From Candidatus Heimdallarchaeum aukensis (GTDB taxonomy: Archaea > Asgardarchaeota > Heimdallarchaeia > Heimdallarchaeales > Heimdallarchaeaceae): a DNA stretch of 64,000 nt. A program made the translations under genes and the position numbers. Shown piece after piece: positions 21,258 to 51,217 of the stretch (positions are counted from its first letter, which is position 1; each line of letters opens with the position of its first letter). The stretch is taken from the NCBI GenBank assembly GCA_021513695.1, contig CP084166.1:2400001-2464000 (forward strand), given 5' to 3'. The notes below the pieces were generated by a model. It saw nothing but the letters and a program-made list of their open reading frames with translations, was not told where the DNA came from and ran no database searches.

Positions 21258-22538
21258 TTGGTGAGTCCTATCACTCAAAAGAAGAAATGCCCTGTATGTG
21301 GATATGTGACAAAAGATCATCGTTTAATGAATTGTCCTAATTGTGGAACAGAGCTTATTTTAGATGTTGTTCTTCCAAGCCTAAATGTTCAGGATTCTTT
21401 TTTTGATATACAAGGAAACGAGTTAAAAGAAACACATAATCTAGGGAACAATAGTAAAAAAATTGACCAACCAGCTTGGCAAATAATGGATCAGGAAGGT
21501 GGAGCGACACAATATCCACTATTTGTAAAAAAGGAAGTAAATCTGTATCCTGTAATTCAAATACCCAGAGTTTCATTTGATTTTTTTAAGCAATATAGAG
21601 TTATATATCTAATTCTAATTTCAATACTCTCAATGTTACAATCAGCTTCTTTTTTGTTCCTAATATCGAGTTTATATGTCATGTTAAATCGAATTAAGTC
21701 GTCTAGCGCTGTTTCTATTATTCCATTTTTACTAGTAGGATTAATCTGTTATTCACTATTTTCTTATTTACAATTTAAATTTATATTTCATATAAAGCAA
21801 AAAAACTTCCCAGAAAGAATATTAGAAAAAGATTCTTCCTTTACTAGTTTTGTTCTAATTAATGCTTTACAATTGTTATTTTCCGCTATTCTCTTAGGAG
21901 TAATTTTCTTATTAATAGCAAAATCGGGAGCAAATATTGAGAAACCAATTATTTCTCAACTTATGTTGGGATTAGGGCTTCTACTAATTGTTCCATTGTT
22001 ACTAGTCTTTAGAACAGCAAAAATTTTAAGCTTGATGAGGAAAACAGGGATCTTTCAAAACATGTACGATGCCATTCAATTTTCAAAATTTTCATTAAGA
22101 AGGGGATACGGGATTCTCTTTGTAAGTATATTATTACCTATTTTCATAGTTACTCTTGGGGTCGGATCTATAACTACATGTTTATCTTCTCTTTTCAGAA
22201 TTTCTGGTTACACAGTGTCAGTATTGCATATTGTTACTACTGTATTTTTACTTATATTGGTGTCTGGATTATTCCTTATTTCAAATAATGAAGATGTTGA
22301 TATTTTGTCCATCTATGAATCATACTTGTTTGCTTTCTCCGTTCCACCTAAAATAACTTGGTTAAATAAAGAAACCAATATCGAAAGCTCGAAAGAAGAA
22401 AAACAAGAATTTGAAGATTTATTTAATCTAGACAATGTTGACTCTTTAGTTGAAGTAAAGTACTGCCCAGTTTGTTCAAGTAAATTACCTGATGATGTTG
22501 ACTATTGTGTGAGCTGTGGTCACCCTCTAAGAGAATGA
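21258..22538 (+). CDS. Polytopic membrane protein capped by zinc ribbons at both termini
   Basis: N-terminal CPVCGYVTKDHRLMNCPNCG, about six hydrophobic helices, and C-terminal CPVCSSKLPDDVDYCVSCG. Start is TTG 21258 or GTG 21261. Confidence 0.6.
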   Translation: MVSPITQKKKCPVCGYVTKDHRLMNCPNCGTELILDVVLPSLNVQDSFFDIQGNELKETHNLGNNSKKIDQPAWQIMDQEGGATQYPLFVKKEVNLYPVIQIPRVSFDFFKQYRVIYLILISILSMLQSASFLFLISSLYVMLNRIKSSSAVSIIPFLLVGLICYSLFSYLQFKFIFHIKQKNFPERILEKDSSFTSFVLINALQLLFSAILLGVIFLLIAKSGANIEKPIISQLMLGLGLLLIVPLLLVFRTAKILSLMRKTGIFQNMYDAIQFSKFSLRRGYGILFVSILLPIFIVTLGVGSITTCLSSLFRISGYTVSVLHIVTTVFLLILVSGLFLISNNEDVDILSIYESYLFAFSVPPKITWLNKETNIESSKEEKQEFEDLFNLDNVDSLVEVKYCPVCSSKLPDDVDYCVSCGHPLRE

Positions 22539-22567: not shown

Positions 22568-23305
22568 TCACTTGAATTTTTTTACGAGTTGTTTTAGAAT
22601 TGTTTGTATTGTTTCTATTTTTTCTTCTATTTTCTCCACTCTTTTAACAAGCTTATTGAATTCGTCAGCTGATACTTCTACTTCTCCAGAGACTGATTCC
22701 ATCATCGATTCTTTAATATCTATAATTCCAGGAGCAAGTTCTTTTTTCTTTGTTACTTTAACGTTATTTGCTTCGAGAAGTGTGTAAGCCAAGAAATCAA
22801 ACGTTTCTTGGATATTTTGTCCTGTTAATGCCGATGTTTCACTATAGTAGAAGTTTATTCCCGTTTCAGTCATTAGTCTCTGACAAAATTCTATAGCCAT
22901 TTTCTGTGATACTCTCCTATTTTCTGGAGGAAGATCGATCTTATTAGCTATTACAAAGTAAACTAGAATTCCAGAATTTGAACCTTCAATACTCTCTTCT
23001 AGCCATGTTCGTAGATTAGTCATTGTTTGTTGATCTTGGATATCAAATACCAACAAAGCAGCTATAGCTCCTTTATAAAAAGTTGACCTAACAGCTGAAT
23101 AGCTATCTTGTCCTGCAAGATCCCATATCTGAAAAGTGATGTCATTGTCTTCTACTTTTACTTTTTTTGAAGCAAAGTCAGCCCCAATTGTTTTAAGATA
23201 GTCTCCTGTAAATCCTTTTCCCATATATCTCTCTCTAATAGAGGTCTTTCCTACTGCTCCATCTCCAGCCAATACAATTTTAAAATTCCATTTTTTTCCT
23301 GTCAA
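22568..23305 (-). CDS. Rab/Ras-like small GTPase with C-terminal coiled-coil extension (no prenylation motif)
   Basis: G1 GDGAVGKT, switch I YLKTIGADF (Rab-like TIGxDF), G3 WDLAGQD, YKGAIAALLVFDI, G4 ANKIDL, G5 ETSALTG. Tail VSADEFNKLVKRVEKIEEKIETIQTILKQLVKKFK. TTG start lies 4 nt after the upstream gene's TGA. Confidence 0.85.
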   Translation of the reverse strand: MTGKKWNFKIVLAGDGAVGKTSIRERYMGKGFTGDYLKTIGADFASKKVKVEDNDITFQIWDLAGQDSYSAVRSTFYKGAIAALLVFDIQDQQTMTNLRTWLEESIEGSNSGILVYFVIANKIDLPPENRRVSQKMAIEFCQRLMTETGINFYYSETSALTGQNIQETFDFLAYTLLEANNVKVTKKKELAPGIIDIKESMMESVSGEVEVSADEFNKLVKRVEKIEEKIETIQTILKQLVKKFK

Positions 23306-23309
23306 GATT

Positions 23310-23996
23310 TCACCCTTGTTGTTTGTATTTAGCTAATTCTTCTTCTAGCTCATCTATTCTTCTCTGAGCTTCAAGTAATCTCTTTTGGAATGTTTCTCCT
23401 ACTTCCTGCTGAGTTCTTTCAAAGTGTGCTTTTGCTTCTTCTAACTCTTTCCTCATTTTTTCTCTTTCCTCACGAGCTTTCTTTATTTCTTCACTCTCAC
23501 GAACTGTTTGAACAGCCTTTTTGAGCAATGTTTCCAAGTCATCTTTTGAAACATCAAAATTTGAGGAAGTAAGCATCTTTAGAGCGTTAAATTCATCAGC
23601 AGAGATTGTAGGTCTACTTTTCATTAGGTCTTCAACCTTCTCTTGTAGAGCTTTTTTCTCGATAAGTAGATCAGAAACCTGTGCTTTCAGTTGTCTATTT
23701 TCTTCACTTAATTGAGTAGAATTTTGTGTTTCAATATCAAGTGATCTTCTAAGATGTTCAATCTCATCAGAACTTTCTCCTAATTGCTTTATGTATCGAA
23801 CTAGCATAACTATATATTCACGCAAAAGAGGATGGATTAAATGCCAATATTGATGGATTTCTCGTTCAATATCAGATAATCTCGGATCTTTCATGTTTGG
23901 AGGGAGTTTTACAAAAACAGGGTTTTCAACATCAATTTGGGGATAATACTCTGGAATATAATTGTAGATTGTTTCTCCTTTATACTTTTTAAACAT
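23310..23996 (-). CDS. Coiled-coil protein co-transcribed with the Rab-like GTPase
   Basis: 228 aa. A globular ~75-aa N-terminus followed by long heptad-rich E/K/Q/L segments. Contains ISADEFNAL, matching VSADEFNKL in the GTPase tail. Confidence 0.65.
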   Translation of the reverse strand: MFKKYKGETIYNYIPEYYPQIDVENPVFVKLPPNMKDPRLSDIEREIHQYWHLIHPLLREYIVMLVRYIKQLGESSDEIEHLRRSLDIETQNSTQLSEENRQLKAQVSDLLIEKKALQEKVEDLMKSRPTISADEFNALKMLTSSNFDVSKDDLETLLKKAVQTVRESEEIKKAREEREKMRKELEEAKAHFERTQQEVGETFQKRLLEAQRRIDELEEELAKYKQQG

Positions 23997-39167: not shown

Positions 39168-41786
39168 ATGAAACTAAAGAAATTTATGGTATTTTTAGTT
39201 ATTCTATCTATTCTAACGATAAATTTTACTCTTCTACAAGGTATGGCTGACACACCACAAAATATTCTGATTTTATCGGAAGAAATAGATGATTCTCTAA
39301 AGGATAGATTTCAACTTGATCCTTCCTTTTCTGTAACTATACAATCACAACTCACAGGTTCACTTGATGGTTATTCTGGAATAATCTTGTATGATTATGC
39401 TCCTAAAAGTTCAGAATATAACCAAATTTTATCTTTCTCTGGGGGTATTGCTAGTTTCATTGGTGCTTCATTATTGTCTAACAGCTCAATTTTACTTGGT
39501 CTAAATATGATATCGGACTCTGTTGGAGAATTAATTAATACAACAGCTCTTCCAGAACCAATAGATCAAAAATCAGAACATGAACTCATAGCAAATATTA
39601 GATGGAACTCTGTTGTTCAAATTAGAAACTTTACGAGCTTACCACTGGCAAACACAATTCTAATTGAAACTTCTTCAGAAAGTAAAACACCAAACATTCC
39701 ACTTGTTAGTACTAATAATGATAATTCACGTATAGCTATTAATTTTCTTCCCAGTGAGCAGGCAAATAGCGAATTTATCCAATGGCCCTATTTTAATTAC
39801 TTCTTAAACATAATACTTAATCTAATTACGTCACAAAAACCACAATCTTACGCAGATTGGCCTTATTCTCCTGTTCCACATAAGTCAGCAACGATAGGTT
39901 TGGGTTTAATGGTATTACTCACTTCAGCTATCACTATTGCTGTGTATATTTTTGTAAAACGCTATTCCTCTAGGAACCCTATCAAAGAAGAAGACTTAGA
40001 AGAAATAAGTAAGGAAATAAAAGAAGAAAAAGACTGGGAAGATATTGGAATGCATAGACAGTTGGCAGGTTTCTTTGTCCAACTGTTTATTGGTTTGCTT
40101 ATAATTCTCCCCAATGTTGTTATGTCTTCTCTAATTTTTCCTCTCTACATTCTTCCAAGTCCTCAAGCAGCAGGATTTTATGATTTTACAATTCGGTTTT
40201 TTGAAGTATTATGGTTGATGTTTGATATTGGTACCTCTGTTGTACTCGTGAAATTCTTTAGTCAACATAGAGTAAAAAACCCACAACAAGCAGTAAAATA
40301 TATTCAAATTTTTATTTATTATCAGATGATTAGTGGGGTACTTCAACTCTTCTTAGTTTCCTTTATTGGTTCAATTTTCTTTCCTCGTTCCTTCTTAGCT
40401 CATTTAAGCTGGCTCTTTGTGACCCATGCTTTCTTCCAGTGGCCTGCGTTTTTTGTTGTTTTCATGCTAATTTTCCAAGCAATGAATCGACATGACATGT
40501 ATCAGATTCTCAACATTCTCCTATATGGAGTATTCAATATCACAATTCAGTATGGTGTTATAGTTATTTTTAGAGTTACTCTAGGAAAAAATCCTATTTT
40601 TGGTGATGGTTTAGCTGGAGCAATTGGATACAGTGTTGGAAATTATGTGATACAAGTAGTTACATTTCTTTTAGGACTATGGATGTTTAAACGCCAAAAA
40701 TTCTCTCTCAAAAGTATATTCAGAATCGATTTTTCTATGGCCGAGATTAAGGAGTCTCTAAGTTTCGGTTTTAAGTGGATGATAGGAAATATTCTTCCTC
40801 CATTAGGTTGGTTTGCGCAAATGTTTCTCCTTTCAACTTTTCTCCCTAACTATACTGAACAACAAGGTTATTTCTCTCTTGCATGGAATTTTGCATTAAT
40901 AGTCATGATAGCTGGGTTGTTTGCACAATCAATTTTACCTGGAGTTTCAGAATCATATCATGGAAAGAAAAAAGTACTAACAAGATACTACACACTAAAC
41001 TCTTTGAAGTGGGGAGCATACTTTGACTGGTTCTTTGTTTCTGCGCTATTAGCTATTGGTCCTCGTTTCATCATAGGAGGAGCGGGAGAAGAATGGGCTT
41101 CTGCAGCAATTATTATACGGTGGATACTCTTATTCCATTTCTTTGGATATTTATCTTGGATTGGAGATTGGATGTTTGCAGGTTCTGATCGTCCTGGTTG
41201 GGCTGCAATAAGTTGGGTAATAGAACAAGTAATAAGAACAGGATTACTTGTTGCGTTCATTCCAGCATATAAATTCTTTACAATTCACTTCAATTCTCCT
41301 ATGATTGGAGTACTTTTTGCATATATTCCCGCTCTAATTATAAAGAATGCATTTATGTGGTGGGGTATACGTAGAGACGACTTTTTCAAGTTCAGATGGA
41401 AAGACCTCTGGTATCAAGGTGTAGTAACTCCTTTACTTTCTGCTCTAGCATTGTTTAGTGTACTTGAACTACTATTTACAGTAATTTGGAAAGGAGAGAT
41501 AATTACATCAGTCGTAATTCTGTTAATTGGAATAATACCAGGACTTTACCTTTTTGCGTTCTTTATGGGACTATTCGGTGGATTTGATGATAACACATTA
41601 ACAGAACTCAAGAGAAGTACAGATATGGTTAAAGGAGTAGGATTTATGGCTAGACCCCTTTACAAACTTACAGAATGGGGGACGAAGATTTCTCCACTTC
41701 ATAACAGATTCCCTATCTCTATATACAATGAGGCCATTAAAGAAGCAGAGGAATTAACAAAAGAAAAAGCTAAACTCGTAATATAG
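39168..41786 (+). CDS. Large polytopic membrane protein with N-terminal extracytoplasmic domain (possibly MOP/Wzx flippase-like core)
   Basis: 872 aa. Signal/anchor MKLKKFMVFLVILSILTINFTLL, a ~230-aa soluble domain, then at least 12 hydrophobic helices. The functional call is weak. Confidence 0.6.
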   Translation: MKLKKFMVFLVILSILTINFTLLQGMADTPQNILILSEEIDDSLKDRFQLDPSFSVTIQSQLTGSLDGYSGIILYDYAPKSSEYNQILSFSGGIASFIGASLLSNSSILLGLNMISDSVGELINTTALPEPIDQKSEHELIANIRWNSVVQIRNFTSLPLANTILIETSSESKTPNIPLVSTNNDNSRIAINFLPSEQANSEFIQWPYFNYFLNIILNLITSQKPQSYADWPYSPVPHKSATIGLGLMVLLTSAITIAVYIFVKRYSSRNPIKEEDLEEISKEIKEEKDWEDIGMHRQLAGFFVQLFIGLLIILPNVVMSSLIFPLYILPSPQAAGFYDFTIRFFEVLWLMFDIGTSVVLVKFFSQHRVKNPQQAVKYIQIFIYYQMISGVLQLFLVSFIGSIFFPRSFLAHLSWLFVTHAFFQWPAFFVVFMLIFQAMNRHDMYQILNILLYGVFNITIQYGVIVIFRVTLGKNPIFGDGLAGAIGYSVGNYVIQVVTFLLGLWMFKRQKFSLKSIFRIDFSMAEIKESLSFGFKWMIGNILPPLGWFAQMFLLSTFLPNYTEQQGYFSLAWNFALIVMIAGLFAQSILPGVSESYHGKKKVLTRYYTLNSLKWGAYFDWFFVSALLAIGPRFIIGGAGEEWASAAIIIRWILLFHFFGYLSWIGDWMFAGSDRPGWAAISWVIEQVIRTGLLVAFIPAYKFFTIHFNSPMIGVLFAYIPALIIKNAFMWWGIRRDDFFKFRWKDLWYQGVVTPLLSALALFSVLELLFTVIWKGEIITSVVILLIGIIPGLYLFAFFMGLFGGFDDNTLTELKRSTDMVKGVGFMARPLYKLTEWGTKISPLHNRFPISIYNEAIKEAEELTKEKAKLVI

Positions 41787-42314: not shown

Positions 42315-44492
42315 TTATTTTTTATATTCAAATTTTTCTGACACTCTAATGTCTCTAGATGAGAAACCTATAAGCAACTCAAATGTTCCTTCTTCTACTT
42401 TCCATTGATGTGATTGGGGGTCGTAGTATTGTAAATGTTCTCTGTTGAAATTAAACTGAATTTGTTTTTCTTCTCCTTCTTTAAGTGATATCTTAGCAAA
42501 ACCTTTTAGTTCCTTAAAGGGACGAATTAACGAGCAATCAACATCTCGAATATAAGCTTGAACCACAACTTTTCCACCTCTTTTCCCTGTGTTTCTAACC
42601 TTAAGTGTTGCTTGTATGGTTTCATTTCCTTTGAAACTTTTCTTGTTCAAAGTAAGGTTGTCACAATCAAAAGAAGTGAATGATAGACCATGACCGAACG
42701 GAAATTGGGGTTCTATATTCTGAGTATCGAAGTGTCTGTATCCTATCATTATTCCTTCCTTATAATTCATTGTTGTTGAAACAAAAAAGCGGTTTTTTTC
42801 TTTTGTATTTTGCTTTAAATGTTTAATTTTTTGATTAAGGTAGTCATCTGCATAATTTTTGACAGTAGAAAAGTCATTCCATCTCTTTGCCATTGTGAAA
42901 GGAAGTTTGCCTGAAGGGTTAACTTTTCCTAAAATAACTTCTGCTACAGGAATTGCTGCATTTTGCCCAAGGTAAAAACTGTGAATAATAGCTTCGACTG
43001 AGTTTAACCAACTTTCAGTTTCAAATCCTCCTCCAGCATTTACTACTACGATTATTTGTTTATTCAGTTCTGCTACTTTTTTGATCAATTTGGATTGATT
43101 TTGAACAAATTCCCAAGGTCTATCTAACGTTTCTGTTTCTTCCCATTCAGTAAAACCTGTACAAATAATAACTTTATCTGCTTCTTTTATTAGCTGTTGA
43201 TCCTTTTTTGTGATCTTATCTCTGTTTGACTTAATTGGAATAAAGTTGATGTTTGGAGCTAATTCCACTAGAGCTTCAAAAATACTCTTAGAATTAGGCA
43301 CATGAACATAGCATGACCCTCCTCCACTTGTGGGTGTTTTAAATGCGTTTCTTCCCAAAACAGCTATATTCTGTTCTTTCAGTGCATCAATTGGAAGACT
43401 ATTTATTTCATTTTTTAGCAAGACAATACTCTCTCTTGCAATTTCAAGGGCGATTTCATTATTTTTTTCTATCAAACTTTCAAAGTTTATTTTTTCTTTT
43501 CTCCTTCCGTATACACCCATTTCGAAAAATACTTTGAGGATATTTCTAACTTTAGAGTCAATCTCATCAAAGGAAGAAATGTTAGTACTCATGTGTTTCT
43601 TTTGTAAGTAATTAAGAATCTTTGTAACTGTGTAATGTTTAGCTTCTGGCATTTCAATATCTAAACCAGCTTCTAATGGTCCTTCAGTACTATAAACCGA
43701 ATCCCAATCAGATATTATAATTCCATCAAATTTCCACTTATTTCGCAAAATTTCAGTAAGTAGTTCTTTGTTCTCACTACAATGAACTCCATTAACTAAA
43801 TTGTATGCAGACATAATAGCTTTGGCTTTTCCTTTTTGAACAGCAGCTTTGAAAGCTGGAAAATATATCTCGTGAAGAGTTCTTTCATCAATAATAACGT
43901 TAGTTGAATGTCTTTTGTATTCGGAGTTGTTTGCTACAAAGTGCTTAACTGTTGCTATAATGCCTGTTTCTTGTAATCCTTGGACATAAGGAACAACAAG
44001 CTCAGAAGCTAAAAAAGGATCTTCTCCCATATACTCAAAATTTCTTCCATTAGTAGGAACTCGATAAATATTTACTCCTGGACCAAGTAAAACAGATATG
44101 TCTTTTGCTCTACACTCCTCACCTATTGCCTTAGCAACTTTGAAAATCAAATCTCTATTCCAACTTGCAGTCATAGCTATCAATGATGGAAAAGCCGTTG
44201 ACCTTCCATAAGTTCGAATACCAGAAGACGCATCTGTAGTCCAGACACGAGGAAGTTTTAAACGTTCAACACCAGAAATAGCAAAAATTTCTTCTCCAGA
44301 AAGAAGATTTATTTTTTCATTAAGTGTTAATTTATTTATAAGATATTCAACTTTTTCTTCTGTTGTTTCGAGTGAAAAAAATTCCTGTTTTCTAATTTCT
44401 TCATTAAGTTTAATGTCAGGTTCAAGTTTCTGGCTGAAATCAGGAGGAGAAGTAAAGATATGGTGAAGTATAACTTTTAATAATTTGTTCAT
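42315..44492 (-). CDS. Beta-glucosidase, glycoside hydrolase family 3 (BglX-like), cytoplasmic
   Basis: GH3 patterns KHFVANNSEYKRH and GIIISDWDSV (nucleophile Asp in SDW), C-terminal alpha/beta sandwich and FnIII-like domain (GHGLSFTSF). No signal peptide. Confidence 0.88.
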   Translation of the reverse strand: MNKLLKVILHHIFTSPPDFSQKLEPDIKLNEEIRKQEFFSLETTEEKVEYLINKLTLNEKINLLSGEEIFAISGVERLKLPRVWTTDASSGIRTYGRSTAFPSLIAMTASWNRDLIFKVAKAIGEECRAKDISVLLGPGVNIYRVPTNGRNFEYMGEDPFLASELVVPYVQGLQETGIIATVKHFVANNSEYKRHSTNVIIDERTLHEIYFPAFKAAVQKGKAKAIMSAYNLVNGVHCSENKELLTEILRNKWKFDGIIISDWDSVYSTEGPLEAGLDIEMPEAKHYTVTKILNYLQKKHMSTNISSFDEIDSKVRNILKVFFEMGVYGRRKEKINFESLIEKNNEIALEIARESIVLLKNEINSLPIDALKEQNIAVLGRNAFKTPTSGGGSCYVHVPNSKSIFEALVELAPNINFIPIKSNRDKITKKDQQLIKEADKVIICTGFTEWEETETLDRPWEFVQNQSKLIKKVAELNKQIIVVVNAGGGFETESWLNSVEAIIHSFYLGQNAAIPVAEVILGKVNPSGKLPFTMAKRWNDFSTVKNYADDYLNQKIKHLKQNTKEKNRFFVSTTMNYKEGIMIGYRHFDTQNIEPQFPFGHGLSFTSFDCDNLTLNKKSFKGNETIQATLKVRNTGKRGGKVVVQAYIRDVDCSLIRPFKELKGFAKISLKEGEEKQIQFNFNREHLQYYDPQSHQWKVEEGTFELLIGFSSRDIRVSEKFEYKK

Positions 44493-44601: not shown

Positions 44602-45675
44602 ATGATAACTCCTTCAATATTTGCATTTTCTTTCCTAATAGAATCAACATTGTTGCTAGGATTTACTACCTATATTTTCATGAAAACCTATCTACAAATC
44701 AAGCACATATCTAATCTTCTAATGAGTATTGGGACAGGATTAGTGATGATTTCCTATTTCGTATCTTTTGGAATGGATTTTATTGATCAAACTGATGTTC
44801 AATCAGCTAAAATAATTTTGTCAATTACAAACATGATAATAACCATAGGTCTATTTTTTATTGCTCTATCTTTATTCTATATAAAATCAAAATATTTCAA
44901 CATCGCAGCAATTGTAGGTTCTTTTCTTGTTGGAATTGCGTTTATTACAGTTTCAAACACTGATAATCTAAGAATGTATTACAATGAAAAAGTTAATTTT
45001 TGGATTAATGACTATACAAAATATGCTAATATATTAATGAGTTCTATTTTTCTTGTTATTTTTATTTTAATTGCTTTGTATGTTACTGAAAAAATAAGAT
45101 ACATAGTAAATAAGAAAAAATTGTTCTCTTTCACTGTTCTTGGAATTTTTATTGCTTTTATATGGTTAGCAATAATTTCTATTCCTGGAGTATATATTTA
45201 CAGAGTCTATATTCTTCCTTTAGCACTATTTTTTATTGGTTTAGATAATTTATTTAATCCTCTAAGTCTGATAGTTTCTCATAACAAGCCAAGAGAAATC
45301 TTTCTTCTTTCAAGAACAAATGTTCCCCTTGTTGGTTATGACTACAGAAAACAAGAGAAAATAAATGATTTGAGTGATATTCGAATACTTAGAGTAAGTC
45401 AGCTACTTATAGAAGAGAAAGTAGGAGAAACAAAAGATGCCCACTTCTCTGCGAAACAAGGAGAATTAATATCCATAGCTTATGAGTGCTTTATTTTAAC
45501 AACAATTGCCAAGGAAATAGACCCTAATTTAAAATCTGTGCTCTATCTAACTTTGCAGAGGTTTTGTGATTGTATAAATTATTCAGTGTTTATATCTTCT
45601 GAAGTTTTAAAGAAAGATGAAGAAGAAAAGTTTCTTATGATTCTAAAAAGCAATCTAGATGCAATATTGTATTAA
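44602..45675 (+). CDS. 7TM membrane module fused to a Roadblock/longin-like cytoplasmic domain, paralog A
   Basis: Seven hydrophobic segments in aa 5-218. C-terminal ~130 aa: EIFLLSRTNVPLVGYDY...DIRILRVSQLLIEEKVGETK...GELISIAYECFILTTIAKEIDPNLKSVLYLTLQRF. The fold assignment is inferred from the strand/helix pattern. Confidence 0.6.
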   Translation: MITPSIFAFSFLIESTLLLGFTTYIFMKTYLQIKHISNLLMSIGTGLVMISYFVSFGMDFIDQTDVQSAKIILSITNMIITIGLFFIALSLFYIKSKYFNIAAIVGSFLVGIAFITVSNTDNLRMYYNEKVNFWINDYTKYANILMSSIFLVIFILIALYVTEKIRYIVNKKKLFSFTVLGIFIAFIWLAIISIPGVYIYRVYILPLALFFIGLDNLFNPLSLIVSHNKPREIFLLSRTNVPLVGYDYRKQEKINDLSDIRILRVSQLLIEEKVGETKDAHFSAKQGELISIAYECFILTTIAKEIDPNLKSVLYLTLQRFCDCINYSVFISSEVLKKDEEEKFLMILKSNLDAILY

Positions 45676-45828
45676 AAAGCAAGTACATTCTTTTTTTTAT
45701 TAAAACTAAAAAATGTCTACACTTGTTAATTGAATACATAATTGAAAAAGTTTTAAAAAATTTTAAGAACCTGAACTTGCCTATAAACAAAAAAGAGCAT
45801 AATTTTTTTAAGTTAATTTCAGCATTTG

Positions 45829-46905
45829 ATGATGATGCTAGTTTCTCTATACTCCTTATCATACTTTATCGAAGCTATTCTGTTTTATGGCTTTACATCG
45901 CTTATTTTCATTAAAAGCTACTTGAAATTAAAGCATGTTTCTAACCTATTTATGAGTATTGGAACATTTTTTGTTCTGCTTTCTTATGGTCTGTCTTTTT
46001 CATTAGCTTTTATTAGCCCAGAAAATTTAGAAAAAGCTAAAAAAATTTTGGTAAGTACAAATATGTTACTTATACTTGGTGTTTATTTAATTTCTATAGC
46101 ACTCATCTATATAAAATCAAAATTTTTCAATGTTGCGGCTATTACGAATTCTTTTTTGATAGGAGTCGCTTTTATAACTCTTTCTCACATTGAAAATTTA
46201 ACAATGACCTACAATGAAAGGGTGAAATATTGGGAAACAGACTATTCAAAACATGCGACTATATTACTATGTTCAGCTTTTTTGTTTATCGCAATTATAA
46301 TCTCTCTTTATGTGGTTGAGAAATTAAAGTATGACATTAAAAAAAGAAAATTCATTTCATTAACAACATTGGGGATATTTACTTGGTTCATATGGATATT
46401 AATAGTTCCTATTCCCAGATTATACCTATATCGGATATTTATATTGCCTTTAGCGCTTTTTTTTGTTGGTTTAGATAATTTATTCAATCCTTTAAGTTTG
46501 ATTGTATCTTCAAACAAGCCAACAGAAATCTTTCTTCTTTCAAAAACTAATATCCCTCTTGTTGGTTATGATTATAATAAAAGAAAGAAAATAGAAGATT
46601 TAAACGATATTAGAATACTTAGAGTTAGCCAACTAGTCATAGAAGAAAAAGTAGGAGAAACAAAAAATGCGTACTTTCACGCAACAGAGGGAGAATTACT
46701 CTCAATTGCTTACGGAAATTATATTTTAACAACTATCGCTAAAAAAATAGATGCTAACTTGAAAACTGTGCTTTCTCTAACTTTAAGAAAGTTTAACTCA
46801 TATATTAATGTCTCATCAGAAAAAAATGCAGAGGAGTTAAAACAGGATGAAGAAAAGATGTTTCTTACGATTCTAAATAATTATCTGGACACAATCTTAC
46901 ATTAA
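45829..46905 (+). CDS. 7TM membrane module fused to a Roadblock/longin-like cytoplasmic domain, paralog B
   Basis: Collinear with paralog A along its full length (roughly 55-70 percent identity by eye). Identical blocks include FNPLSLIVS, PLVGYDY, DIRILRVSQL and EEKVGETK. Triple ATG at 45829-45837 after the track TTG at 45826. Confidence 0.6.
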   Translation: MMMLVSLYSLSYFIEAILFYGFTSLIFIKSYLKLKHVSNLFMSIGTFFVLLSYGLSFSLAFISPENLEKAKKILVSTNMLLILGVYLISIALIYIKSKFFNVAAITNSFLIGVAFITLSHIENLTMTYNERVKYWETDYSKHATILLCSAFLFIAIIISLYVVEKLKYDIKKRKFISLTTLGIFTWFIWILIVPIPRLYLYRIFILPLALFFVGLDNLFNPLSLIVSSNKPTEIFLLSKTNIPLVGYDYNKRKKIEDLNDIRILRVSQLVIEEKVGETKNAYFHATEGELLSIAYGNYILTTIAKKIDANLKTVLSLTLRKFNSYINVSSEKNAEELKQDEEKMFLTILNNYLDTILH

Positions 46906-47169: not shown

Positions 47170-48162
47170 GTGAAAAAAGTGTCAAATTACACAAAATTAA
47201 AGTGGTATCGCTTTGATATTGCAAGAAGAATCAGAGCGCTTGATGGAGAAGAACTAGTTGCAGAATTGGAAAAAATAATAGAAGAAATCAAAAGAAAAAA
47301 GTTAGATCGATTAGGCGTATTTAAAGTACAGATTAGAGAATTGGAACAGCTAATAGAAAATGAAAAAGCTCAACCAAAGAGAAAAGGAAGACAATACGAC
47401 CCCTTCTTTATTCCATATGGAGGGGATGGAAGAGTTGCACTTTTTGGTTTGTCAAATGTCGGAAAAAGCTCGCTTATGAATGCTATAACTAACGCAGAAG
47501 TAGCTACAGGAAATTATTTGAACACTACGAGACAAGCATTAGCAGGGACGTGTGAATACGAGAATGTAAAAATTCAGATTATTGATTTACCCGGTTTCCT
47601 AGACTTTAAAGAGGATTGGAACATTAGTAAACAAATCTTAAGGGTTGCTCGAACTTGTGACTCTATAACACTTGTAATAGATTTGTCAATGAATGTTGAA
47701 AGACAATATAACTTTCTTATCCAACAATTAGAAAACGCTAGATTAATTAAAGATGGAGAAACAATCTACAAATTTGCCATTATTGCAACAAAAGGTGATC
47801 TTCCTTGTACAGAAGAAGCTTTCAAGAAATTGAAAACAATAACTGATTTATCCATATGCCCAATCTCAATGAAAAATAAGGATTCTTTGGACAGATTAAA
47901 GAAAATGCTCTTTGAAACATTAAATGTAGTAAGGGTCTATACCAAGAAACCTAAAAATCAACCTGATATGGAGCATCCTCTCGTTCTACCAAAAGGTTCA
48001 ACAGTTAAAGATGTAGCACTGAAATTACACAAGGATTTCCTTAAATTTTTCAAATATGCTAGAATTTGGGGTAAATCTTGCGATTTTCCTGGTCAAAGAG
48101 TAGGGGTTGAGCATATTCTTGAAGACGAGGATATAGTAGAAATTTCAACTTCACAAAAATAG
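47170..48162 (+). CDS. DRG/Obg-family GTP-binding protein with C-terminal TGS domain
   Basis: G1 GLSNVGKSS, G3 DLPGF, G4 TKGD. C-terminal VVRVYTKKP...GSTVKDVALKLHKDF...ARIWGKS...GQRVGVEHILEDEDIVEI (TGS). GTG start preceded by GGAGGTGA. Confidence 0.85.
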   Translation: MKKVSNYTKLKWYRFDIARRIRALDGEELVAELEKIIEEIKRKKLDRLGVFKVQIRELEQLIENEKAQPKRKGRQYDPFFIPYGGDGRVALFGLSNVGKSSLMNAITNAEVATGNYLNTTRQALAGTCEYENVKIQIIDLPGFLDFKEDWNISKQILRVARTCDSITLVIDLSMNVERQYNFLIQQLENARLIKDGETIYKFAIIATKGDLPCTEEAFKKLKTITDLSICPISMKNKDSLDRLKKMLFETLNVVRVYTKKPKNQPDMEHPLVLPKGSTVKDVALKLHKDFLKFFKYARIWGKSCDFPGQRVGVEHILEDEDIVEISTSQK

Positions 48163-48823: not shown

Positions 48824-51217
48824 ATGTCAACAGAATTTGTAGGTAAAGTTCCTACTAAATTGGTAAAACTAGTGCTAAATCATGTTATAAGAAAAAAACA
48901 CTTTAAAAATAATCAAGTTATTCCGCCAGAGAATTGGCATTCGTTAGGTAATTTTGTAGGAATAGATAAAGAAAAGATGGAGATAAAACTAGAAAATGGT
49001 GAAATGAAGATAGAATATATCAAGCCCCATATAGTCAAGATTTTTTATGGTCTAAAAAAAGAAAAAAAGCCGTTAAGTTTTGCTATTGAGAAAGATCTTG
49101 ATTCATTTACACAAATTTTTGTTAGCGATAGAAAAGAAGTAGTAGACATAAGCCCTAAAGGAAGTAAGAAACAACAGAGTATTTCCATTATTATTGATAA
49201 AGATAATAATCTCTGCATTTTTAAATCTCCAAGAGGAGAGATTTATTCTGAAACTATACCAATTTATTCAGAAGAAAAGTGGTATAGAAGTTTAAAGATA
49301 TCAAATAAAACAAGAGAACATTATTTTGGTTTTGGAGAAGCTACAGGAGAGTTAGATAAAGTTAATAATACTGTTGCATTTTGGAATACTGACAGTCTAC
49401 CTTATGACAATAAAAGAAAAAATCTCTATCAAAGCCAGCCAATTCAAGTTACAATTCAAGAAAATGGTTTAATTTATGCAATAATTTATGATAACCCATA
49501 CAAATCTACAATTTCTGTTGAAAAAAACGAAGCAGGTTACATAACTGAATATTCTGTCGCTGGAGGAGGAATAATTTATTACCTTATAGTCAGTTCATCA
49601 ATTTCAGGCCTGTTTTCTGAATTAACATACATTTTAGGAAAAGTACCTCTTCCTCCATTAAATTCTCTAGGTCACCATCAAAGCCTATGGTCATATAAGA
49701 ATGAAGAAGAAGTGAGAAAAGTCGCAGAAACTTTCAGAAATAAGCAAATACCTTGCGACTTTATTCATTTAGACATTGATTATATGGATGGCTATAGAAT
49801 ATTTACGTGGAATAAAGAACGATTTCCAAATATTAAAGAATTATCGTCTGAATTACTCGAAAAACACAACATTAAACTTCTCGCTATTACCGATCCAGGA
49901 ATAAAAGTTGATCCCGAATATTTTATGTATAAGGAAGGAATAAAAGATAATCATTTTGTCAAAAATGAAGATGGAAAAACACTATTCGAAGGAGAAGTAT
50001 GGCCCGGACAATGTCATTTTCCTGACTTTAGCCAGCAAAAAACAAGAGAATGGTTTGGTAGTAAGTTTAAGATTTTAGATGAGTGTGGAATAGAAGCTTT
50101 TTGGATAGATATGAATGAACCTTCAGTTTTTTCAGAATTAGGGACTATACCAGAGGCTGCAATTCATCCTTGCGATGGAAAAAACAGATCTCATGCAGAA
50201 ATGCATAATCAATATGGACACTTGATGTCAAAAGCGGTTTATGAGGGATTAAAAAAAATCAATGAAAATAAACGTGTATTCATTTTAACTCGTTCAGCCT
50301 ATATTGGAACACAAAGATATGCTGGGAGCTGGACAGGAGATAATAATGCTGAATGGGGGCACCTAAGAATGAGTTTACCTATGTTGATGAATATGGCTAT
50401 AAGTGGACAAGTAATGATTGGTCCTGATATTGGGGGTTTTCTAGGAAAACCTTCTGCAGAATTACTCATTAGATGGTACCAAGCAGGATTATTCTATCCC
50501 TTTTTCAGAAATCATAGTATAAATAAAAATTGCCGACATGAGCCATGGGTATTTGGAAAGCGTGTAGAAAAAATTATCCGCAAAACAATCCAATTAAGGT
50601 ATCAGTTATTACCCTATCTCTATACTTCGCTGGTGGAAACTTGTAAAACTGGTATACCTCTCTTTAAAGCTCTTTTCATTGATTACATAAACGACGAAGA
50701 GGTCTATAATAAACAATGGCTTAATACTGAGTATTTAGTGGGAAATTCATTACTTATTGCACCAATTCTTAAAAAATGGAGAAGAAAAAGAAAAGTATAT
50801 TTTCCTAAAGGGACAAAATGGTTTAGTTTTGATGGTAGTCAAATTTATGAAGGAGGAAAAACATATACTATCTCTATCCCTCTTGATTCCTTCAATTTTA
50901 TTTTTATAAAAGAAGGTTCTATAATTCCAATAATTGATAAGGATATTCAATCAACAGAAGAAGTGCTGAAAGAGCCATTAACTATCCTAATTTGTGGAGA
51001 AAAAGAAGCAAAAGGAGAAGTTTACCTTGATGATGGTTATACTATGAATTATGAAAAAGAAGACTTTGAAATTGCAAGATTCGAAGCAAAGCTACAAGAG
51101 AAAGAATCATGGAATATTTACCTCTCTAGAGAAGGGAAAAAGAAGAAATACATCAATGTTGAAAATGTAAAGCAGGTAGGCCATAGGACTATAGGTTTTG
51201 CAATATTTGAAGAATAA
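48824..51217 (+). CDS. Alpha-glucosidase, glycoside hydrolase family 31, cytoplasmic
   Basis: GH31 signatures FWIDMNEPS (nucleophile Asp), SWTGDN and IGPDIGGF. No signal peptide. Confidence 0.88.
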   Translation: MSTEFVGKVPTKLVKLVLNHVIRKKHFKNNQVIPPENWHSLGNFVGIDKEKMEIKLENGEMKIEYIKPHIVKIFYGLKKEKKPLSFAIEKDLDSFTQIFVSDRKEVVDISPKGSKKQQSISIIIDKDNNLCIFKSPRGEIYSETIPIYSEEKWYRSLKISNKTREHYFGFGEATGELDKVNNTVAFWNTDSLPYDNKRKNLYQSQPIQVTIQENGLIYAIIYDNPYKSTISVEKNEAGYITEYSVAGGGIIYYLIVSSSISGLFSELTYILGKVPLPPLNSLGHHQSLWSYKNEEEVRKVAETFRNKQIPCDFIHLDIDYMDGYRIFTWNKERFPNIKELSSELLEKHNIKLLAITDPGIKVDPEYFMYKEGIKDNHFVKNEDGKTLFEGEVWPGQCHFPDFSQQKTREWFGSKFKILDECGIEAFWIDMNEPSVFSELGTIPEAAIHPCDGKNRSHAEMHNQYGHLMSKAVYEGLKKINENKRVFILTRSAYIGTQRYAGSWTGDNNAEWGHLRMSLPMLMNMAISGQVMIGPDIGGFLGKPSAELLIRWYQAGLFYPFFRNHSINKNCRHEPWVFGKRVEKIIRKTIQLRYQLLPYLYTSLVETCKTGIPLFKALFIDYINDEEVYNKQWLNTEYLVGNSLLIAPILKKWRRKRKVYFPKGTKWFSFDGSQIYEGGKTYTISIPLDSFNFIFIKEGSIIPIIDKDIQSTEEVLKEPLTILICGEKEAKGEVYLDDGYTMNYEKEDFEIARFEAKLQEKESWNIYLSREGKKKKYINVENVKQVGHRTIGFAIFEE

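Follow-up and report, generated by a model that had tools for sequence, protein, structure and literature searches.

In eukaryotic membrane traffic, small GTPases use the longin fold as their platform, and a pair of adjacent genes in the archaeon Candidatus Heimdallarchaeum aukensis raises the question of what such a domain does when it is part of a polytopic membrane protein. The genes lie in a window of 64,000 nucleotides, the whole stretch of DNA analyzed here, to which all coordinates refer. Gene A (44602..45675, plus strand, 357 aa from an ATG start, stop codon included) and its paralog gene B (45832..46905, plus strand, 357 aa) were identified from the list of open reading frames and, for B, by a gapless alignment to A. 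The B frame has an upstream TTG start at 45826 that would give 359 aa and an ATG at 45832 that gives 357 aa; the product is 100% identical to P0003 (Ca. Heimdallarchaeum aukensis K9W45_10960, 357 aa, start ATG 45832). The preliminary description, made from the sequence alone, spoke of two collinear same-strand paralogs of 357 and about 358 aa with a 150-bp spacer. Both frames were found, with a spacer of 150 bp up to the TTG or 156 bp up to the ATG, and BLASTP aligned the two proteins gaplessly across 357 residues, at 59% identity and 80% positives (E = 8e-155), a similarity that makes them collinear paralogs far beyond chance. Identity is 68% in residues 219–357 and 54% in residues 1–218, as expected from the earlier remark that the C-terminal part is the best conserved, and the motifs named there (among them EIFLLS.TN.PLVGYDY and DIRILRVSQL.IEEKVGETK) are present in the A/B alignment.

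Both genes appear to be maintained. Comparison with the orthologs in a sister species gave dN/dS values of 0.10 for gene A and 0.23 for gene B, which indicate purifying selection on both. Frameshift-split relatives exist (a Ca. H. endolithica copy in L010 and a copy in L005), as one would want if the pair were decaying duplicates or annotation artefacts, but both window genes are intact, the sister species retains the tandem pair, and the architecture is constant across a family whose identity reaches down to about 16–20%. Together with the dN/dS values, these observations refute a non-functional reading of the window copies, to which we assign next to no probability.

The N-terminal half of each protein is a seven-helix membrane module (residues 1–218; 44602..45255 in gene A and 45832..46485 in gene B, plus strand). 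In gene A, seven hydropathy peaks correspond to seven helices in the AlphaFold model, at about residues 5–27, 36–58, 69–93, 99–119, 142–163, 174–194, and 198–218, and all seven hydrophobic segments originally quoted were among them; in gene B, the module was assigned from hydropathy and the gapless alignment. The stretch ahead of helix 1 averages 3.6 residues in the family, i.e. about 4. Across 29–34 family members, loops 1–2, 3–4, and 5–6 carry on average 2.5, 1.45, and 3.7 Lys plus Arg residues, and loops 2–3, 4–5, and 6–7 carry 0.6, 1.15, and 0.2. By the positive-inside pattern, this distribution corresponds to an external N-terminus and an internal C-terminus, which agrees with the cytoplasmic location proposed for the soluble domain and is, with seven helices, the arrangement expected of a GPCR-like protein. 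Helix 7 leads into the soluble domain through a short linker (gene A residues 219–231, 45256..45294, plus strand) recognized in the family alignment by an N/D-P-L/F motif, which folds as a short helix in the domain model and has the same proline, P220, in all 34 sequences compared.

For the C-terminal domain, of about 125 aa, a Roadblock/LC7/MglB or longin-type fold had been suggested. The domain comprises residues 232–357 of gene A (45295..45672, plus strand), and linker plus domain comprise residues 219–357 of gene B (46486..46902, plus strand). A domain model built from alignment A3, with the gene B region included, reached a pLDDT of 90.6, and all of the top 50 Foldseek matches were longin or Roadblock structures, with three-dimensional similarity to solved longin domains, so that an unrelated fold was not encountered. 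DSSP of the model gave E12–19, E24–29, H40–56, E61–66, E69–76, E79–85, H90–115 (two segments), and H120–137, corresponding in gene A to beta1 230–237, beta2 242–247, alpha1 258–274, beta3–5 279–303, alpha2 308–333 (two segments), and alpha3 338–355. This order, beta1-beta2-alpha1-beta3-beta4-beta5-alpha2-alpha3 without an N-terminal helix, is that of a longin, and the full-length model agrees. The Roadblock order, alpha1-beta1-beta2-alpha2-beta3-beta4-beta5(-alpha3) with an N-terminal helix, was not found, Roadblock structures aligned over fewer residues and with lower scores than longins, and Robl_LC7 (PF03259) matched one of 34 members at E = 0.045, short of Pfam membership. Thus, the superfamily fold and the longin alternative stood and the Roadblock alternative did not, whereas structural scores do not separate the longin subclasses from one another.

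Sequence comparison assigned the domain to no named family. None of the Pfam longin families searched (Longin, Sybindin, Sedlin_N, Clat_adaptor_s, SRX, and Fuz_longin_1) matched above its curated threshold, the sole trace being Fuz_longin_1 (the longin_1 domain of Fuz/MON1) in 3 of 34 members with a best E of 0.013, and longin membership therefore applies at the level of the fold. In a PDB profile search, the best match was the Odinarchaeota Roadblock protein 7f8f (E = 0.085), with MON1 at E = 2.4. The Fuz_longin_1 and 7f8f matches, although weak, are in keeping with the fold seen in the model. A PDB sequence search with A alone returned RcsB and gamma-COP at E > 0.4, which we rejected as noise.

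An exhaustive HMMER search defined a family of 35 clusters at 50% identity, whose full-length members share one architecture, collinear throughout, and whose placed members are all from Asgard archaea; gene A matches the full-length family HMM at E = 2e-115. Few distant members came up in a word-indexed homolog search, even when it was given alignments, and a locus search with the narrow alignment A5 yielded 5 genome loci. Neither A and B nor distant members had a significant match in Pfam or NCBIfam, the family carries no name in any database source consulted, and HMMER starting from it reached no soluble longin at E <= 1e-3. The preliminary description did not recognize the architecture as a described one, and in the literature searched we likewise found no transmembrane-longin or 7TM-Roadblock fusion. 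We are highly confident that A and B consist of seven transmembrane helices, N-out/C-in, joined by a conserved linker to a cytoplasmic longin domain, and we are equally confident that they belong to a small, unannotated family that is Asgard-only among its placed members and has both modules fused in each full-length member found.

What the seven-helix module is related to was less apparent. Pfam, NCBIfam, and PDB sequence searches gave it no significant match, including to GPCR, transporter, and enzyme families, so that the transporter or enzyme relationship named earlier as the alternative to a receptor-like bundle did not materialize, and the N-terminal profile A6 found nothing among PDB sequences. 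The GPCR family 7tm_3 matched a single member at E = 0.013, and the profiles of the bacterial receptors 7TMR-DISM (PF07695, E = 0.92 with A) and 7TMR-HD (PF07698, E = 0.041 in one of 34 members) were not significant. Conserved residues in the membrane half include N77, G111, Y127, W134, Y138, K164, W188, R201, and P206, with no Asp, Glu, His, Ser, or Cys of catalytic-site type. Seven of the ten conserved membrane-half residues (N77, G111, Y127, W134, Y138, W188, and R201) fall in the outer halves of helices or in the outer loop 4–5. In the full-length AlphaFold model, the bundle has a pLDDT of only 35–60 and its structure matches are generic helical bundles; an "outer pocket" is thus deduced from topology rather than seen in structure.

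Asgard archaea possess dozens of small GTPases and longin/Roadblock proteins, and most of these GTPases do not have lipid anchors like those of eukaryotic Rabs. The Rab-like GTPase reported at 22568–23305 was confirmed (Pfam Ras E = 9.5e-40, TIGR00231 E = 1.6e-19), 21 kb from the A/B pair. It has no C-terminal cysteine for lipid anchoring, a gap that docking on a membrane-integral platform would fill. No Ras-superfamily gene was found within 6–8 kb of family members in about 12 independent genomic contexts, and no GTPase, Roadblock, or longin neighbor gene was conserved across the family loci examined. Asgard GTPase and regulator genes are rarely linked, which makes partners hard to assign.

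Taken as a whole, the explanation that we tentatively prefer, while regarding it as somewhat short of probable, combines the 7TM-longin architecture with a GTPase-platform mechanism. The mechanism itself, in which a paired longin platform at the membrane serves a small-GTPase partner and the seven-helix module is its anchor and possible sensor, is possible at a slightly lower level of confidence. To our knowledge, all characterized longin and Roadblock domains pair, and those of A and B would do so as A-A, B-B, or A-B. The pair would form a platform held flat on the inner membrane face by the seven-helix anchor and would recruit or regulate a partner there, most likely a small GTPase of the Ras superfamily, of which the organism has many; for this GTPase it could be a receptor or a platform of the GEF or GAP kind. 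Platforms of this type are known from MON1-CCZ1, the TRAPP core, SR-alpha/SR-beta, and Ragulator. Because the conserved residues cluster in the outer bundle half and loop 4–5, the seven-helix module may also have a binding site for a ligand, either external or in the membrane, and occupancy of that site would be relayed to the longin platform by the short rigid linker. Dimerization via the central helix has been described for Roadblock proteins, and Roadblock/longin dimers as a GTPase platform (PMC10933270).

The lack of a linked Ras-superfamily gene and of receptor-family similarity counts against this GTPase-platform role, and so does the fact that some longin domains, such as those of SNAREs and AP sigma/mu subunits, function without GTPases. 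The preliminary description had gone further and proposed GPCR-like signaling to small GTPases; with a 7TM module that shows no significant sequence similarity to GPCRs, bacterial 7TM receptors, or other known proteins and no conserved GTPase neighbor in those contexts, this proposal is plausible but gained no support. A one-polypeptide archaeal receptor, with a 7TM module that senses a ligand outside or within the membrane and a longin dimer that then activates, inactivates, or docks a Ras-superfamily GTPase, seems unlikely to us. If it existed, the archaea most closely related to eukaryotes would have receptor-to-small-GTPase signaling, or a way of targeting GTPases to membranes that needs no lipid anchor, and the protein could be a forerunner of membrane-anchored longin/Roadblock platforms such as SR-alpha/beta, Ragulator, and MON1-CCZ1.

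Other functions can be weighed against the same data. A regulated transporter or channel, in which the 7TM module transports a small solute or handles lipid and the longin domain is a cytoplasmic regulatory or dimerization domain that gates it by protein or ligand, would account for the polar and aromatic residues conserved inside the bundle (N77, W188, R201, and Y138), for the invariant Pro-containing hinge after helix 7, and for the lack of a conserved GTPase neighbor. Many membrane transporters have cytoplasmic regulatory domains, and GH3 and GH31 glycosidase genes flank the pair in the window and in the sister species. These glycosidase genes are, however, not kept outside close relatives, no transporter family is matched in the searches above, the 3+1+3 repeat of SWEET/PQ-loop transporters is absent (hhalign of helices 1–3 against 5–7, probability 0.7%), which led us to reject that class, and we know of no longin domain that gates a transporter; we judge this function to be rather unlikely. 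Conserved interior residues also bear on a GTPase-free membrane-traffic adaptor, with a 7TM anchor or cargo-like part and a longin domain that binds peptide motifs or coat-like or SNARE-like proteins, as VAMP7, Sec22b, Ykt6, and AP sigma/mu do. A mere anchor would not need seven helices with such residues, the proteins end with the longin helices, with no SNARE heptad region or extra domain, and structural scores do not tell longin subclasses apart; we consider this role improbable.

A same-strand GTPase gene does lie close to the pair: 265 bp downstream of B, at 47170–48162, and likewise after B in the sister species. An MglB-type Roadblock GAP acting on this neighbor would fit with the Roadblock and MglB structures among the structural matches and with an Odinarchaeota Roadblock as best PDB sequence match. 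Nevertheless, the element order is that of a longin, Roadblocks align less extensively and score lower, and the neighbor combines MMR_HSR1 and TGS domains, marking it as a DRG/Obg-type GTPase, a type usually tied to translation, rather than an MglA/Ras-type switch. Its synteny is confined to close relatives, and it is missing from all other family loci. On these grounds we disfavor the GAP reading as very improbable.

Compared with known systems, the 7TM-longin protein adds a new domain architecture to the already known expansion of Asgard longins, with a function that we infer. Asgard genomes encode many small GTPases and many longin/Roadblock proteins in unusual fusions (10.1101/2020.10.19.343400). 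That expansion includes soluble longins, longin-GTPase and longin-TRAPPC3 proteins, an NPRL2-like longin with two-component-domain fusions, and the Loki Roadblock-Longin structure 8yqg, whereas the described fusions that we found involve no polytopic membrane module. Since lineage-specific longin fusions are already known in such number, A and B should be taken as a further case of this kind until a partner is demonstrated. Eukaryotic longin GTPase platforms (MON1-CCZ1, the TRAPP core TRAPPC1/C4, SR-alpha SRX with SR-beta, FLCN-FNIP, and NPRL2/3) are soluble or peripheral proteins that lipids or partners recruit; in A and B, whose sequence similarity to them is below significance, the longin is covalently fused to a seven-helix integral module. 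Longin SNAREs (VAMP7, Sec22b, and Ykt6) have an N-terminal longin, a SNARE motif, and a single C-terminal anchor, in contrast to seven N-terminal helices, a C-terminal longin, and no SNARE motif here. With 7TMR-DISM and 7TMR-HD, A and B share the logic of a prokaryotic seven-helix module fused to a cytoplasmic signaling domain, but they lack the extracellular N-terminal sensor domain and have a longin output in place of a kinase, cyclase, or HD domain. Ragulator-Rag with SLC38A9 and the actinobacterial conservons (CvnA sensor, CvnB Roadblock, CvnD GTPase) join a polytopic membrane sensor and a Roadblock-superfamily platform in controlling a small GTPase at a membrane, as proposed here; sensor, platform, and GTPase are separate proteins, encoded in one operon in the conservons (PMC5696360, PMC13343842). 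In A and B, sensor and platform would be one polypeptide, with no linked GTPase gene. A longin built into a polytopic membrane protein is a candidate membrane docking or regulatory site for Asgard GTPases, and if the seven-helix module senses a ligand, it would add a new type of prokaryotic receptor output.

Tandem paralog pairs occur in three separate clades, at 59% identity in the window, 46% in L013, and 22% in L016. In the family tree, each pair nests in its own clade, which rejects one ancient A/B duplication common to the whole family and indicates that the pairs arose independently. Their repeated birth suggests how heterodimers could have evolved from homodimers, as is assumed for eukaryotic longin complexes. 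This recurrence was counted as a hint of pairing, as was the fact that helix alpha1 (89% identical) and beta1-beta2 (88%) are the elements best conserved between A and B. Read directly, the spacer between the genes (45676..45831, plus strand) is AT-rich and has a T8 run immediately 3' of the A stop codon, possibly an archaeal terminator followed by a separate promoter for B.

Gene A (44602–45675, plus strand) begins at an ATG and encodes 357 aa. The reading frame of gene B (45832–46905, plus strand) opens at a TTG at 45826, giving 359 aa, and its database twin P0003 (Ca. Heimdallarchaeum aukensis K9W45_10960; 357 aa, 100% identical) starts at ATG 45832. BLASTP aligned the two products without gaps over 357 residues (59% identity, 80% positives, E = 8e-155). 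The hydrophobic segments and motifs quoted in the preliminary description were all found in the sequence, and its statement that the C-terminal part is the better conserved held, with 68% identity between A and B over the C-terminal 139 residues against 54% in the membrane half. Conservation between A and B peaks in beta1-beta2 (88% identity) and in alpha1, the central helix (89%), and falls to 53–55% in helices alpha2 and alpha3. The spacer (45676–45831), AT-rich in a window of 27–34% G+C, carries a T8 run after the stop codon of A and may hold an archaeal terminator as well as a promoter of B's own. A database relative 97% identical to gene A, P0001 (NCBI ACTSSL_09660), is without 8 residues of helix 2 and 3 residues of the beta1-beta2 turn, either as a strain variant or through a MAG assembly defect.

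Residues 219–357 were modeled with a 34-sequence domain alignment (pLDDT 90.6, pTM 0.84). Its elements, which follow a short linker helix, run beta-beta-alpha-beta-beta-beta-alpha-(alpha)-alpha. Aligned lengths in the structural comparison were 104–123 residues. The Foldseek top 50 for this model consisted exclusively of longin and Roadblock proteins, with modest E-values (best 3.6e-4, zeta-COP). The Roadblock/longin-type fold proposed in the preliminary description is borne out, and the class is longin. Longins differ from Roadblock proteins in having no N-terminal helix and an extra C-terminal helix (Tran et al., PMC10933270), and the domain shows exactly these differences. Sub-threshold sequence signals, namely Fuz/MON1 longin_1 in 3 of the 34 members, Robl_LC7 in one of the 34 scanned, and the Odinarchaeota Roadblock protein 7f8f as best PDB profile match (E = 0.085), point the same way. 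The domain is a longin by fold and lies outside every named family by sequence.

Hydropathy revealed seven hydrophobic segments in the N-terminal half, and both AlphaFold runs contained seven helices. Family-wide, the mean number of K+R is 2.5 in loop 1-2, 0.6 in loop 2-3, 1.45 in loop 3-4, 1.15 in loop 4-5, 3.7 in loop 5-6 and 0.2 in loop 6-7, and both loop 2-3 and loop 4-5 are acidic. These charges, read with the positive-inside rule, place the N terminus (~4 residues) outside and the C-terminal domain in the cytoplasm. We conclude that A and B are very probably polytopic membrane proteins in which a conserved linker of 12 residues connects the last helix to a longin domain on the cytoplasmic side. 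As deduced from sequence positions and this topology, the seven-helix 3D model being unreliable, 7 of the 10 conserved membrane-half residues (N77, G111, Y127, W134, Y138, W188 and R201) map to the outer half of helices 3, 4, 6 and 7 or to the 21-residue outer loop 4-5.

A word-indexed search recovered just four close Heimdallarchaeaceae proteins, each named "hypothetical." Exhaustive HMMER searching of 1.84 billion representatives returned 35 clusters at E <= 1e-3, and neither the seven-helix module nor the longin module occurred alone among these matches. Members are mostly 350–385 aa and collinear over their full length, the shorter matches being partial sequences. Identity drops to 15–20% in the 34-sequence family alignment, in which W188 and P220 are invariant, G111, Y138 and R201 are nearly invariant, N77, Y127, W134 and K164 are strongly conserved, and an N/D-P-L/F motif is kept right after the seventh helix. 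The taxonomically placeable members, a set that leaves out several high-GC and "uncultured archaeon" sequences, are all Asgard (kingdom Promethearchaeati); these placed members come from Ca. H. aukensis, several Heimdallarchaeaceae MAGs, Ca. H. endolithica, one "Promethearchaeati archaeon" MAG and a contig assigned to Thorarchaeota by a named neighbour gene. The family is small, paralog-rich and traced so far to Asgard archaea alone, with at least three clades within Heimdallarchaeaceae and at least three divergent members in one MAG. In Ca. Heimdallarchaeum endolithica CP084167 (L010, 6172–7136) and at locus L005 (7209–8324; ORFs of 244 and 107 aa), the family member is spread over at least two frames, as a pseudogene or through an assembly error.

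A sister Heimdallarchaeaceae species retains the A/B arrangement over two contigs, one with a GH3 gene and then an A-type gene at the contig end, the other with the last 70 codons of an A-type gene, a B-type gene, a DRG-like GTPase, YdjM and GH31; the duplication is thus older than the split of these species. Nei-Gojobori dN/dS was 0.10 for the A and 0.23 for the B orthologs of the window and this species, and ~0.2 for A against B, indicating that both copies are under purifying selection. Besides the window pair (59% identical), adjacent same-strand pairs occur in two further, distantly related clades, at L013 (6817–7941 and 8001–9080; 46% identical) and L016 (1657–2739 and 2935–4035; 22% identical). 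Every tandem pair nests inside its own clade in a neighbour-joining tree, so the duplications look independent and recurrent, and a single ancient A/B split behind all pairs is disfavoured. Roadblock proteins dimerise through their central helix, and small GTPases sit on platforms formed by Roadblock/longin dimers (PMC10933270). Repeated retention of paralog pairs, together with the conserved alpha1 face, would fit dimeric, possibly heterodimeric, longin platforms; simple receptor-family expansion would also fit.

The pair is flanked on the gene A side by a divergent GH3 beta-glucosidase-type gene (42315–44492, minus strand). Downstream of B by 265 bp lies a DRG/Obg-type GTPase gene with MMR_HSR1 and TGS domains (47170–48162, plus strand; 330 aa, GTG start), followed on the same strand by a YdjM-family membrane protein gene and a GH31 alpha-glucosidase-type gene (48824–51217). 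This synteny is limited to the sister species. Around the family in other clades (~12 independent contexts), neither a Ras-superfamily gene nor a further longin or Roadblock gene was found, and no neighbour recurred; GTPases were screened for by phmmer with two window queries, which very divergent ones could escape. This missing linkage is weak evidence. In MK-D1, a cultured Asgard archaeon, genes for small GTPases generally lie outside operons with Roadblock, longin and TRAPPC3 genes (PMC10933270).

We tentatively propose a mechanism that, taken as a whole, is possible and somewhat short of probable. The longin domains would pair up on the cytoplasmic face of the membrane, where the dimer would serve as docking site or regulator for a partner that is most probably a small GTPase. 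The seven helices would anchor this platform, and their conserved outer face may be where a ligand is sensed. A channel or transporter regulated by its longin domain is rather unlikely: Pfam, NCBIfam and PDB profile searches gave no significant match for the module, and a 3+1+3 internal repeat was looked for and is absent. The receptor-like bundle of the preliminary description is thus contradicted by no known transporter or enzyme family and stands as a candidate.

We consider a GTPase-independent adaptor resembling SNARE or AP longins improbable. An MglB-like GAP acting on the neighbouring DRG-type GTPase is very improbable: that gene is syntenic at L012 of the sister species (1810–2793) and missing beside other family members. 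Purifying selection on both genes leaves non-functional ORFs a negligible prospect. Asgard genomes hold ~130 orthologous groups of the Roadblock/longin superfamily, including many lineage-specific fusions to GTPases, TRAPPC3 and two-component domains (10.1101/2020.10.19.343400, PMC10933270). The literature searched, the supplementary orthologous-group tables of these two sources aside, yielded no account of a longin domain joined to a polytopic membrane module. By hypothesis, the A/B protein works like SLC38A9-Ragulator-Rag and the actinobacterial conservons, which combine sensor, Roadblock platform and GTPase, and like bacterial 7TM receptors that carry a fused output domain, but when tested it belonged to neither kind of system; we therefore class the fusion as an architecture new to the expanded longin repertoire of Asgard archaea. 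With this family there is a concrete candidate, open to testing, for the way in which longin platforms and non-lipidated GTPases of Asgard archaea come together with the membrane.

The Ras-family GTPase cited in the preliminary description is genuine (22568–23305, minus strand; Pfam Ras E = 9.5e-40) and lies 21 kb from the pair. Its C-terminal helical tail of ~70 aa is cysteine-free and hence has no prenylation site; residues 208–240 match MtrG weakly. A coiled-coil-looking ORF (23310–23996, minus strand), 4 nt away, may be co-transcribed with it. Adjoining the GTPase gene on the opposite strand, 21258–22538 (plus strand) encodes a 426-aa protein with an N-terminal CxxC zinc-ribbon-like motif, a long multi-pass hydrophobic region and a C-terminal Pfam zinc-ribbon match. 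An 872-aa ORF without a Pfam match (39168–41786, plus strand) has an equal-length counterpart at the matching position in the sister species (L011, 574–3192).
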